In this document: in pieces, positions 38,992 through 64,000 of the stretch
Layout: each line of letters starts with the position of its first letter
How positions within the stretch are numbered: position 1 is the first letter of the stretch
Sequence record: OW991345
Length of the DNA: 64,000 nucleotides
Source of the DNA: Escherichia phage vB_Eco_AL25
Direction: 5' to 3' (one strand)
Position numbers and translations under genes: made by a program
Notes under the pieces: model-generated
Seen by the model: the letters and a program-made list of their open reading frames with translations, nothing else
The model's database searches: none
Told to the model about the DNA's origin: nothing

Positions 38992-39369
38992 ACTACTTTT
39001 GCTAAAACCTTTGGTCAGGCTTCTACTAAAACCGAATCCAACAATGGTTCTCGTCCGAAAGCTCAGTTCTGGATTAACGTTGGCTATGTAGCTAATGAAG
39101 GCACTGAAGATGAACGTTTCATCTCTCTGCCTACTGGTATTCCACTGGATACTCAGGAGCATCTGCCAACCAATTCCTCTAACGAAGACTTCCGTGCAAT
39201 GCGTTGTGCACAGAACGATTTGTTAGACCAACTGATGGAATTTGCTAAGACTCTGGAACCAGGTCAGGAAGGAGTTATCTCACTGCAAGTTCAACTTCGT
39301 CGAGTTAAAGAAGAAGCTCCTGCTATCTCAGCAAGTGAGAATAAATATGCTCGTAAACTGACTTTTTAA
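38992..39369 (+). CDS. early hypothetical protein, 125 aa
   Basis: RBS GGAGAG 6 nt upstream of ATG; the TTG start at 38872 in the ORF track lies inside the promoter. Confidence 0.55.
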
Positions 39370-61119: not shown

Positions 61120-63060
61120 ATGCGTCACATTACATTCAACAATGAGGGTATCTACCCTATTGCTATCCTTACTACAACGTTACGTAAGGATGATATTGTC
61201 AAAGCATACATGGAACCCTGGGATGTAGATAAAGATTCAGTAATGATTCTTGAACTTCATACAGCCCCAGGGAAAAAGAAAACTCCTGCTAAAGAGATGC
61301 AGGAGTTTATTACCCAAGAATTAGTGCCAGCATTAGAAGCAGCACAAACTCAGTATATCATCTGTGGTGATTCTGAATATTACAAACAGCTAACCAAACA
61401 AGGTAAAGCTGATGCCAATATTGGCTATGTAATGGATTGTGCTTATGGGAACCAGAAAGTTATTTACGTTCCCAATTACAGACAAATCTTTTATGACCCG
61501 GATAAGGTAAAGACTAAGATTGCTTTATCTATGCAGGCTCTGATTGATTATGTCTCTGGTTCTTATGTTGAGCCAGGAACTAAGATTATCCACTATGCTG
61601 ATTATCCATTAACTCCAGAAGCTATATCTAAGTGGTTAGATAAGTTACTGGAGATGAATGTTCCGTTAGCAGTGGATATAGAAACTTTCAGTCTGAAGCA
61701 TTATGACTGTGGTATAGGCACTATTACATTCTGCTGGAACAAGCACGAAGGGATAGCATTCCCTGTGGATTATGAACCAATTGAGGGAGCTACTGAAGCT
61801 CCTTATGGTAGACAAGTTCACAACATGCTTGTTCGTTCCATGCTCAGGGACTTTTTTATTAAGTATCTGAACAGGCAGATGTATCACAATATTGCCTTTG
61901 ACGTATATGCACTCATTTACCAGTTATTTATGACAGACCTTCTGGATACGGAAGGGTTGTTGCATGGCATGAGTATCATGCTAAGAAACTGGGATTGCAC
62001 TAAGTTAATTACCTATCTGGCCACTAATTCTTGTGCTGGTAATAAGCTAAGTCTTAAAGACCAGGCTCAGGAATATGCTGGTAACTATGCTCAAGAAGAA
62101 ATCAATGACATTACCAGAATCCCATTAGCAGAGTTGTTGGAATACAACTTAGTGGATGGATTATGTACCTGGTATGTCTATGAAAAGCATTGGGATACTC
62201 TGGTTAATGACCAACAGTTAGATGTTTATACAAACATCTTTAAACCTGCATGTGAAGATATTATTCAAATGCAGTTAACTGGTATGCCTATCAATATGAA
62301 GACAGTATTGGAGGTAGAAGAAGCATTAACCCAAGACTATAACAATGCGTTAAAAACGATTGCTGACAGTAAAGTAATCAAAGATTTTACCCGTCTTCTT
62401 AATGAAGAATGGGTAGAAAAACAGAACCAGATTCTGAAGAAGAAACGAGTAACTTTAGCTGATGCTAAAGAGCAGTTTAATCCAAACTCAGGTATTCAAT
62501 TACAGAAGCTACTTTTTGAGTTTCTGGAGTTACCCGTACTGGGTCTGACTGCAAGTAAACTACCTGCTACTGGTAGTGGCATACTCAAGTCTTTGAAGAA
62601 CCATACTCAAGATACCAGTATTCTGGAAATTCTTGATGCTCTGATTGATTACAAAGCTGTAGATAAAATTCTGACAGCATTCATCCCAGCATTAAAAAAT
62701 GCCAGACAAGGACCAGATGGTTGGCATTATCTCTTTGGTAATCTGAACTTAGGTGGGACTGTATCAGGTCGTCTATCCAGTAGTGAACCAAACCTACAGA
62801 ACCTACCTTCTGGTTCCAGATATGCCAAGATGATTAAGAAATGCTTTGAGGCTCCCCCTGGGTGGATATTCTGTGGGCTAGACTTTGCTTCTCTCGAAGA
62901 CCGTATATCTGCTTTAACAACCAAAGACCCTAACAAGCTGAAGGTGTACATGGGTGTGACTGTTTATACAGTTACTATAGAAGGAGTTGACCATCATATC
63001 CGAGATGATGATACAATCGTTTATGATGGTAAAACTTATACCGGTGAGGAGTTACCCTAA
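61120..63060 (+). CDS. family A DNA polymerase, N-terminal part (3'-5' exonuclease domain through motif A); frame ends inside a 127-bp tandem duplication
   Basis: Exo I LAVDIETFSL, Exo II HNIAFDVYAL, motif A GLDFASLEDRI; RBS GAGG; terminates at TAA 63058-63060 (would run to TGA 63209-63211 with one repeat copy removed). Confidence 0.8.
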   Translation: MRHITFNNEGIYPIAILTTTLRKDDIVKAYMEPWDVDKDSVMILELHTAPGKKKTPAKEMQEFITQELVPALEAAQTQYIICGDSEYYKQLTKQGKADANIGYVMDCAYGNQKVIYVPNYRQIFYDPDKVKTKIALSMQALIDYVSGSYVEPGTKIIHYADYPLTPEAISKWLDKLLEMNVPLAVDIETFSLKHYDCGIGTITFCWNKHEGIAFPVDYEPIEGATEAPYGRQVHNMLVRSMLRDFFIKYLNRQMYHNIAFDVYALIYQLFMTDLLDTEGLLHGMSIMLRNWDCTKLITYLATNSCAGNKLSLKDQAQEYAGNYAQEEINDITRIPLAELLEYNLVDGLCTWYVYEKHWDTLVNDQQLDVYTNIFKPACEDIIQMQLTGMPINMKTVLEVEEALTQDYNNALKTIADSKVIKDFTRLLNEEWVEKQNQILKKKRVTLADAKEQFNPNSGIQLQKLLFEFLELPVLGLTASKLPATGSGILKSLKNHTQDTSILEILDALIDYKAVDKILTAFIPALKNARQGPDGWHYLFGNLNLGGTVSGRLSSSEPNLQNLPSGSRYAKMIKKCFEAPPGWIFCGLDFASLEDRISALTTKDPNKLKVYMGVTVYTVTIEGVDHHIRDDDTIVYDGKTYTGEELP

Positions 63061-63180
63061 CAAGCTGAAGGTGTACATGGGTGTGACTGTTTATACAGTT
63101 ACTATAGAAGGAGTTGACCATCATATCCGAGATGATGATACAATCGTTTATGATGGTAAAACTTATACCGGTGAGGAGTT
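62927..63180. repeat. exact 2 x 127-bp tandem direct duplication
   Basis: 62927-63053 identical to 63054-63180 by base-by-base reading; flanks differ. Confidence 0.9.
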
Positions 63181-63780
63181 CTATGACGCTTTTACCCGTG
63201 GCCTTCTATGAACAACGGTATAAGATTTCCGATGAAGGTTTCATCTTAAATCTTGCAAACAATCAACCCCTAAAACCGACTCTCAATCCTAACGGATACC
63301 TTAAGGTTGGGTTAGCTAATGGGGATGGTACACATCACCAAGAGCTACTTCATATTCTGGTAGCTAAACACTTCATCCCTAATCCTTATGGCTATGAACA
63401 GGTGAACCATAAAGATGGTAATAAACTGCATTGTCATAAGGATAATCTGGAATGGTGCTCTGCTACTCAGAATGTTGAACATGCACTTAAAACAAGGCTA
63501 CGTCCTGGTTACATGTCTGCTGACGATAAAGAAAAGTATCTCTTTGAGGTGCTGGCAGGTAAGCAAGTTAAAGACATTGCTTTTGAAATAGGTAGACGTC
63601 CTGAAACTTTGCATAAGATGCTCAGAACTACTGCTGACCGACTTGGTGTTCGAAATGAGTGGGATGATGTTATGAGGAGAAATAGAAAAGATGTTGCTTT
63701 ACGACAGCTTGCCAAAATCAACTCATGACTTCACTGGCAAGAAAATTGACAACGTAGTCAAAGCCGGGAGTTCATCAGGT
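63083..63780 (+). mobile_element. HNH homing-endonuclease insertion interrupting the DNA polymerase gene (group I intron or free-standing HEG); boundaries approximate
   Basis: Polymerase motif A upstream, motif-B-like KAPTFALTYQG downstream in another ORF; HNH ORF in between. Confidence 0.5.
63183..63728 (+). CDS. HNH homing endonuclease, 181 aa
   Basis: HHQELLH...VNHKDGNKLHCHKDNLEWCSATQNVEH (HNH); C-terminal helix-turn-helix-like tail; RBS GGTGAGGAG. Confidence 0.75.
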   Translation: MTLLPVAFYEQRYKISDEGFILNLANNQPLKPTLNPNGYLKVGLANGDGTHHQELLHILVAKHFIPNPYGYEQVNHKDGNKLHCHKDNLEWCSATQNVEHALKTRLRPGYMSADDKEKYLFEVLAGKQVKDIAFEIGRRPETLHKMLRTTADRLGVRNEWDDVMRRNRKDVALRQLAKINS

Positions 63781-64000
63781 TACGATGGGCATAGTCTTCG
63801 TGCATATGCTTACTTCGGTGAGATGATGCCCGACATTAAAGATACGGTAGAGTCTGTTAATTCTATTCAGGAGAAGTACAAAGCATATCGTCAGGATTCT
63901 AAAGCACCTACCTTTGCTCTTACCTATCAGGGTACGTACATCACTTTGATGAAGAACTGTGGTTTCCCTGAACAGAAAGCTCGAATGGTTGAGGAACGTT
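63691..64000 (+). CDS. family A DNA polymerase, C-terminal part (partial; continues beyond window)
   Basis: GYDGHSLRAYAYFG and motif-B-like RQDSKAPTFALTYQG; possible ATG at 63691 with GAGGAG 11 nt upstream; open to window edge. Confidence 0.6.
   Translation, partial: MLLYDSLPKSTHDFTGKKIDNVVKAGSSSGYDGHSLRAYAYFGEMMPDIKDTVESVNSIQEKYKAYRQDSKAPTFALTYQGTYITLMKNCGFPEQKARMVEER

Follow-up and report, generated by a model that had tools for sequence, protein, structure and literature searches.

Introduction

Splitting of genes by free-standing homing endonucleases is established, and interruption of the DNA polymerase (DNAP) gene of N4-like phages by an HNH endonuclease gene has been in print since 2013–2015. 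Here we analyse such an interruption in a 64,000-nt stretch (hereafter the window) of Escherichia phage vB_Eco_AL25 (sequence record OW991345), whose last 3 kb are the DNAP region of an N4-like coliphage (genus Enquatrovirus). The insert in its polymerase gene consists of 44 polymerase-frame codons (the tail), an HNH gene and 29 further polymerase-frame codons (the head), which we refer to together as the cassette. At least nine phage records, one of them identical to the window, already show the gene as split: vB_Eco_SPSP, VEc25, PMBT57, Jura, AlfredRasser, Pollock, SP5M, PD205 and Pylas are annotated with two polymerases plus an HNH gene or with a joined coding sequence (CDS). Deposited N4-like loci have the same or a homologous sequence, and two papers (PMC4319500; PMC3670811) note an HNH gene breaking the DNAP gene; the papers and two of the deposits call the insert an intron without having tested this, whereas the present analysis argues against an intron.

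Among other described systems, the nrdA gene of Aeromonas phage Aeh1, which encodes an essential enzyme, was reportedly found by Friedrich and colleagues in 2007 (PNAS) to be split by the free-standing homing endonuclease gene mobE, and its separately translated halves are said to reassemble into an active enzyme. That case, like the one argued for here, involves neither an intron nor an intein; it differs in that the split gene encodes a ribonucleotide reductase, that the endonuclease is of another lineage and that function of the split enzyme was reportedly shown there but is inferred here. We know of no conserved folded extension domain in the Aeh1 case.

In 'fractured genes' (Dassa et al., 2009, Nucleic Acids Research; PMC2677866) a replication gene, usually that of a phage, is halved, with a free-standing endonuclease on the same strand between the halves and with in-frame cassette peptides and control elements, an arrangement very like the present one. 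The peptides of fractured genes are, however, real split inteins, with six HINT motifs, Cys1, block-B Thr/His, a terminal Asn and a +1 Cys, and their endonucleases are GIY-YIG or Vsr-like. At the phage locus the endonuclease is of the HNH type, the open reading frames (ORFs) overlap without non-coding spacers, and the peptides have neither catalytic residues nor HINT motifs, so that covalent ligation is not expected. The introns in the polymerase genes of phages SPO1 (I-HmuI) and SP82 (I-HmuII) share with the present locus both the endonuclease family and a family A DNAP host. There the insert is an intron, whereas here no ribozyme core was found and the sequences flanking the HNH ORF appear to be translated and under selection.

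The HNH interruption itself is ordinary for phage biology. That the 'intron' label is probably wrong, that the cassette carries a conserved folded tail and that its restart signals are conserved seem to be points absent from the literature searched, and the tail domain is a feature that can be tested directly.

Results and discussion

A cassette with an HNH gene separates the motifs of an N4-type DNA polymerase

The polymerase region of the window is 100% identical to that of Escherichia phage vB_Eco_SPSP (hereafter SPSP), 98–99.6% identical to those of ten further records and, over the portions present in N4, 97.9% identical to phage N4. The N4 DNAP (gp39, 860 aa) is encoded by a single continuous gene reading ...KDPNKLKVY-TD-GYDGHSLRAY..., and in relatives that lack a 127-bp tandem duplication present in the window (see below) 701 nt substitute for the 6 nt coding for TD. 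Relative to N4, the insert spans 62950–63777 of the window, which is 828 nt, or 701 nt minus the duplicate copy. An initial annotation of the window, made from the sequence alone, had correctly set the junction after KVY and before GYDGH, and it had proposed alignment with N4-family polymerases to place the insertion; such an alignment, by BLAST against N4, located the break exactly at KVY-TD-GYDGH and, N4 DNAP being continuous there, established a true insertion. The bounds given in that annotation, 63083–63780, have to be replaced by those stated above.

For comparison we used ten duplication-free loci: those of SPSP (L002), AlfredRasser, Pollock, SP5M, PD205 and Pylas (L006), and four metagenomic contigs, namely L008 (Logan ERR12726222, from a metagenomic schitovirus), L009, L010 (JGI 3300047094) and L012 (NCBI GCA_022076565.1, contig JAKLPE010000127.1). 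In L010 and L012 the head ends in ...VGN and ...VGQ, respectively, and TD-G(F/Y)DGH comes next; both loci thus keep the native TD, which places the insertion point exactly between Y and T. The gene hit is the only family A DNAP gene of the phage, and the insert lies in the loop between motifs A and B. The HNH cassette is carried by 11 near-identical phage records and by many metagenomic contigs, far beyond what chance would produce, with the cultured lytic phages AlfredRasser, Pollock, Pylas, SP5M and PMBT57 among the carriers. The Enquatrovirus phages N4, OLB145 and 3HA13 are cassette-free, as against the 11 carriers.

All features of the split gene are on the strand shown. The native N-terminal part of the polymerase, the N4 gp39 homologue, is the ORF at 61120–62949, which encodes the 3′–5′ exonuclease, the thumb and the palm with motif A (GLDFASLEDR) as far as ...KLKVY. 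Up to the insert it is 97.8% identical to N4 DNAP; it matches positions 12–180 of the Pfam DNA_pol_A profile, and its counterpart in SPSP is the CDS at L002 1621–3585. The 44 tail codons (MGVTVYTVTIEGVDHHIRDDDTIVYDGKTYTGEEFYDAFTRGLL*) lie at 63077–63211, the same codons beginning at 62950 in the first copy of the duplication; with the duplication removed, the tail follows ...KVY without a break and forms the C-terminal end of the N-fragment, which stops at the TGA at 63209–63211. The gene for the HNH homing endonuclease (181 aa, with NUMOD4, HNH_3 and a C-terminal helix-turn-helix-like region) occupies 63183–63728. A Shine–Dalgarno (SD)-like GAGGAG at 63173–63178, within the tail codons G-E-E, precedes its ATG by 4 nt; this signal is weak or absent in three of eight related loci. 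A second GAGGAG, at 63674–63679, lies 11 nt 5′ of the ATG at 63691 that opens the C-terminal fragment with the 29 cassette codons of the head (MLLYDSLPKSTHDFTGKKIDNVVKAGSSS, 63691–63777). Annotations of SPSP, SP5M, PD205 and Pollock set the head start at the identical position. The native polymerase resumes at 63778 with GYDGHSLRAYAYFG...KAPTFALTYQG (motif B) and continues past the end of the window (63778–64000); from 63778 on it is 98.2% identical to N4 and matches DNA_pol_A positions 200–303. We read the remainder of the C-fragment, including motif C (IHDAQ), from the identical SPSP record, in which the full C-fragment is 276 aa (L002). Motifs A (DFASLEDR), B (KAPTFALTYQG) and C (IHDAQ) thus follow in order over the two fragments, as is characteristic of family A.

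ORF listing and direct reading accordingly bear out what the initial annotation had described, namely a family A polymerase ORF upstream that includes motif A (GLDFASLEDRI) and then stops, a downstream ORF with GYDGHSLRAYAYFG and KAPTFALTYQG, and a 181-aa HNH ORF in another frame between them. The gap of ~0.7 kb that it had drawn between the polymerase ORFs does not exist: once the duplication is removed, both overlap the HNH ORF, which in the window shares 29 nt with the tail ORF and 38 nt with the C-fragment ORF.

This layout of tail, HNH ORF and head is constant in all ten duplication-free loci. Across them the tail is 42–45 codons long, the HNH ORF overlaps its end by 23–29 nt, the downstream ORF begins with an ATG that falls within the 3′ end of the HNH ORF (overlap 14–47 nt) and lies 19–29 codons 5′ of GYDGH, and non-coding bases in the insert number 0 nt. 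The N-fragment has its own stop, whose position is the same in every tail-bearing protein. In eight of eight diverged loci a 5–6-nt SD core lies 5–11 nt before the C-fragment ATG, and this SD is kept even in L009 and L012, where its position relative to the overlapping HNH codons differs.

From these sequence comparisons we conclude that the polymerase is probably made as two separately translated polypeptides, with a free-standing homing endonuclease gene rather than an intron between them. A cassette built around a free-standing I-HmuI-type HNH gene would have landed between the ...KVY and TD-GYDGH... codons; the 44 tail codons would extend and then end the upstream polymerase frame, and the SD, ATG and 29-codon head would restart the downstream one. 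The expected products are an N-fragment of ~654 aa (~74 kDa) with the exonuclease, thumb and motif A, ending in tail peptides such as VYMGVTVYTVTIEGVDHHIR or TYTGEEFYDAFTR, and a C-fragment of ~276 aa (~31 kDa), starting MLLYDSLPK, with motifs B and C. The two would have to reassemble non-covalently into one active site, presumably as a heterodimer of ~74 + ~31 kDa whose composite active site takes the motif A Asp from one chain and the motif C Asp from the other.

Both fragments are under purifying selection, with ratios of non-synonymous to synonymous differences per site (pN/pS) between SPSP and SP5M of 0.28 for the N-terminal and 0.22 for the C-terminal native part (exons N and C). To break a catalytic domain apart between motifs A and C is a drastic change, and the polymerase might simply have been inactivated, with another polymerase replicating the phage, although nothing specific speaks for this. 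N4 replication relies on its own DNAP. Selection on both fragments persists in diverged carriers, the split form occurs in dozens of 50%-identity protein clusters and in many cultured lytic phages, and the frame has been conserved together with the stop, SD and ATG, which makes loss of function scarcely credible. If the enzyme does have two subunits, the protein sequences given for the joined CDS in two of the records are probably fictitious; if the break is tolerated, a cut between motifs A and B that yields a composite active site would offer a natural split site for polymerase engineering.

The insert has the signals of a translational restart and no detectable ribozyme

Of the two alternatives left by the initial annotation, a self-splicing group I intron that carries a homing endonuclease and a polymerase divided into two polypeptides by a free-standing endonuclease, the evidence favours the second. 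Under the first, the insert would be a group I intron with an HNH ORF, as in the DNAP genes of SPO1 and SP82, and splicing would restore a continuous mRNA. Several points count against separate translation. Two separate polypeptides, and their association, are what we infer and not what was observed; the Rfam group I model can overlook atypical introns; and an intron is the reading already in print and in deposited records, with three such annotations. The genome announcement of Pollock speaks of an 'intron-encoded HNH endonuclease' (PMC4319500), the paper on Vibrio phage JA1/VchO139-I says of such HNH genes that they 'may be carried on an intron' (PMC3670811), and the AlfredRasser and Pylas records annotate a joined CDS across the insert. 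According to the BASEL paper, intron boundaries were deduced by comparative genomics. Further support for an intron comes from the closest solved homologue of the endonuclease, I-HmuI, which is intron-encoded, and from the existence in this polymerase family of genuine group I introns with NUMOD4/HNH ORFs.

The Rfam scan proposed in the initial annotation nevertheless yielded no intron match in the cassette or in those of ten related loci. With permissive filters, no group I or group II intron was found at E ≤ 10 in window positions 62500–64000 or in loci L002–L004, and a focused scan of the 851 nt around the duplication-free cassette (L002 3380–4230) gave neither RF00028 nor a group II model at E ≤ 10; the cassettes of L008–L012, scanned at E ≤ 10 or E ≤ 1, likewise had no Rfam intron. 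Identical scans did detect genuine group I introns at two further positions in this gene, which serve as positive controls: RF00028 matched L008 3966–4246 with 75.7 bits (E = 8e-19) and L012 6306–6542 with 46.1 bits (E = 5e-9). Outside the HNH ORF, moreover, the insert comprises only 107 + 49 nt, all of it coding in the polymerase frame and under purifying selection at the protein level, and this leaves no space for a ribozyme core of ~200 nt or more. A downstream SD and ATG conserved in eight of eight loci would serve no purpose in an intron. The missing Rfam match, the lack of non-coding sequence, the selected tail and the conserved ATG and SD together favour a free-standing endonuclease, and we regard a group I intron as unlikely.

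Translational bypassing or frameshifting over the ~0.55 kb was also considered and is implausible given the conserved restart signals; a match to an Rfam 'frameshift element' (E = 7.8) is noise.

The introns that served as controls are part of a wider set of interruptions in these polymerase genes. In L008 (3966–4985) a group I intron, followed by a 225-aa ORF (4302–4979) without a precomputed Pfam match, interrupts the polymerase after ...SSSDPNMQNL. Short 'polymerase' ORFs of 90–92 aa among the proteins collected (P0002, P0003 and P0005) are probably second exons after such introns, P0013 being an intron-less counterpart. A different group I intron in L012 (5750–6623), with a NUMOD4/HNH_3 ORF of its own (5886–6434), breaks motif B (KAPTFALT|...) of the C-fragment; the polymerase of L012 thus bears both the tail/HNH/head cassette and an intron.

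A 127-bp tandem duplication in the window is almost certainly an assembly product

Positions 62927–63053 and 63054–63180 of the window form a perfect tandem duplication (Tandem Repeats Finder: period 127, 2.0 copies, 100% match; exact comparison agrees). As 127 bp do not make a whole number of codons, the duplication throws the polymerase out of frame and introduces a stop at 63058–63060. This is the stop that the initial annotation, which had overlooked the duplication, took for the end of the upstream ORF. That annotation had also named a continuous polymerase ORF as what would speak against an interruption, and here the outcome was mixed: the stop at 63058 is artefactual, yet the gene is still split, at 63209–63211.

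The duplication is absent from all 11 close relatives, each of which is 127 bp shorter here (2874 nt against a query of 3001 nt). The sister record of SPSP (OV049961.1) has the same 127 bases at 1–127 and at 70853–70979, a leftover assembler overlap; these correspond to window positions 39012–39138, another place in the genome, at which the window holds one copy. The 44-aa 'DNA polymerase I' ORF deposited for vB_Eco_AL25, on a contig of 70,977 bp, is exactly the ORF with which a record beginning at window position 63054 would open, and 70,977 − 127 gives 70,850 bp, within the 70,849–70,857 bp spanned by the genomes of relatives. The largest default k of the assembler SPAdes is 127. We are therefore all but certain that the window reads through the point where the end of a circularly assembled record meets its start, and that the duplication has no biological origin; copy 1 (62927–63053) very probably closes the source record and retains an assembler overlap of k = 127, and copy 2 (63054–63180) probably opens it.

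A real duplication would describe a variant phage with an early-ending N-fragment (…TGEELP*). It is what the window as given contains, and the truncated product, which retains 34 of the 44 tail residues, might be viable. A length of exactly 127 bp at perfect identity, its absence from 11 genomes that are 98–100% identical, the like overlap at the ends of the SPSP record, and the agreement of the 44-aa ORF and of the corrected record length with the relatives make such a variant very improbable. The repeat clearly illustrates how an assembler overlap, once a circular contig is read past its ends, turns into a spurious frameshift.

In OV049961.1 the annotation of the first CDS spans the two record ends and marks it as a pseudogene, and the true SPSP genome is 127 bp shorter than the record.

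The tail is a conserved domain that travels with the endonuclease

Over its 35 codons that do not overlap the HNH ORF, the tail has pN/pS of 0.06–0.28, and substitutions fall at third positions in 12 of 15 cases between SPSP and SP5M and in 9 of 11 between SPSP and Pollock, while its two other frames are full of stops. Non-synonymous differences per site (pN) in the tail do not exceed those in the HNH gene in any pair, and are lower than those of the exons in all pairs except Pollock–Pylas. Eleven tail positions are invariant over eight diverged cassettes. The head is less conserved than the tail (pN/pS 0.07–0.7).

An AlphaFold2 model of the tail, computed from a nine-sequence alignment, has a mean predicted local distance difference test score of 85.7, with 29 of 51 residues at 90 or above. 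It predicts a compact beta-meander in which four tail strands join the native strand ...LKVY, with residues GEEFYDAFT forming a helical cap. Taken with the substitution pattern, the model suggests that the tail is a small folded domain under strong selection that travels together with the endonuclease.

In a tblastn search of 50,697 phage records, the tail was found only beside this HNH gene. A phmmer search over 1.84 billion cluster representatives returned 43 hits, 38 of which end in the tail; these are N-terminal polymerase fragments of ~630–690 aa or shorter or exon-2-like pieces (42–522 aa). None of the 43 is a protein of ~900 aa with an internal tail. Intact polymerases with the intervening residues as native sequence, which the initial annotation had named as a finding that would speak against an insertion, are thus missing from this exhaustive search, and the interruption it proposed survives. 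The distribution of the hits over dozens of 50%-identity clusters indicates that the split form is widespread and old and has always ended at the same place. An earlier word-indexed protein search, with nine short ORFs for the tail and one match for the head, is superseded by the exhaustive HMMER search.

The remaining five hits, weak and in four cases made up of several stretches, are long repeat proteins, for the most part adhesins with Ig repeats, whose similarity comes from a beta-hairpin common to both and not from homology; the likeness to the giant Ig-repeat adhesins P0041, P0042 and P0051 comes down to a '...VNGNTYTG...' hairpin motif.

If the polymerase is split as proposed, the chances are about even that the tail helps its two halves to reassemble, possibly with the less conserved head. 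A point against such a role is that the tail residues TGEEFY may be conserved in part for the overlapping ribosome-binding site and start codon of the HNH gene. We propose, tentatively and with more doubt than confidence, that the cassette carries a 'repair kit', a folding domain of ~40 aa and a short head that are mobilised with the endonuclease and hold the polymerase halves together non-covalently, and that may possibly be the relic of a dead split intein. Such a kit, if real, would define a new class of 'fractured gene' without inteins and would provide a natural, transferable system of split site and assembly tag for family A polymerases.

The cassette peptides lack the residues and size of a split intein

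The order of the three ORFs, an N-extein with a peptide, a free-standing endonuclease and a peptide with a C-extein, is that of fractured genes, and tail and head might accordingly be a tiny or atypical split intein whose trans-splicing ligates the polymerase halves. Two observations support ligation and so weigh against separate, unjoined polypeptides. In eight of eight loci (AGS|SS, AGN|SS, VGS|ST, VGN|TP, AGQ|TV, VGN|TD, VGQ|TD and VEN|TQ, in L004–L012 and the window) the last head residue is N (4), Q (2) or S (2) and the next one is S or T, and inteins turn up, though not at significant levels, as structural and profile neighbours of the tail.

The first residue of the tail is M, V, T, I, S, A or Q, however, so that there is no conserved Cys1/Ser1 nucleophile, and the head of the window ends in Ser instead of Asn, leaving only the +1 Ser/Thr as a fitting residue. 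At 42–45 aa for the tail and 17–27 aa for the head up to the putative junction (29 aa in full), both are short of the 88–105 and 33–54 aa of split inteins. Mini-inteins have ~125 aa or more, and the 71 aa of tail and head in total are too few for the HINT fold. No HINT or intein family of Pfam matched tail, head or tail plus head at E ≤ 10. A profile of tail plus head found nothing significant among PDB sequences, an intein-like chain (9hth_A) appearing only at E = 0.2, and the tail has no significant structural match. Ligation by a split intein is thus quite unlikely. That the two peptides may be a catalytically dead relic of one is only a lead.

The hits that Pfam did return for tail or head at E ≤ 10 (Tox-GHH, Gln-synt_C-ter and ISG65-75) are chance matches.

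The HNH cassette has the distribution of a homing element

The HNH protein matches NUMOD4 (PF07463) with 23.8 bits (cutoff 23.4), HNH_3 (PF13392) with 26.1 bits (cutoff 24.8) and PHROG 59 at 1.5e-35. Its nearest solved structure is that of I-HmuI (1U3E, E = 8e-10), the intron-encoded nicking endonuclease of the SPO1 DNA polymerase intron, whose residues 6–102 align with the HNH protein, including ...NHKDGNK...NLEW...N. Relatives of the HNH protein at 69–100% identity occur only at this site of schitovirus DNAP genes, in Enquatrovirus, Gamaleyavirus (SP5M and PD205), Pollockvirus and Pylasvirus.

Between SPSP and Pollock the exons are ~50–70% identical and the cassette 86–100%, with a synonymous divergence (dS) of ~0.5 in the cassette and saturated dS in the exons; between Pollock and Pylas, it is the exons that are 80–90% identical and the cassettes only ~60%. 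A cassette history discordant with that of the host gene, together with presence and absence within one genus, is a classic signature of homing. Judged from presence or absence at a precise site and from the mosaic of identity and dS, the cassette is mobile. During co-infection the enzyme would presumably nick or cut cassette-free alleles of the N4 type (...GTGTATACCGATGGTTACGATGGG...), with the N4 sequence ...AAGGTGTATACCGATGGTTACGATGGG... as the putative target, and the cassette would then be copied in through recombinational repair. Such cleavage and copying would account for the patchy distribution that disagrees with phylogeny.

Other genes in the related loci

Pylas has a second HNH gene (Pylas_052, L006 4643–5161), annotated as 'homing endonuclease (intron)', two genes downstream of the split polymerase, where it sits between a small hypothetical gene and the gene for thymidylate synthase. 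In L010, a 129-aa ORF (688–1077) with a Pfam match to Histone_HNS (H-NS-like) lies upstream of the helicase and polymerase genes.

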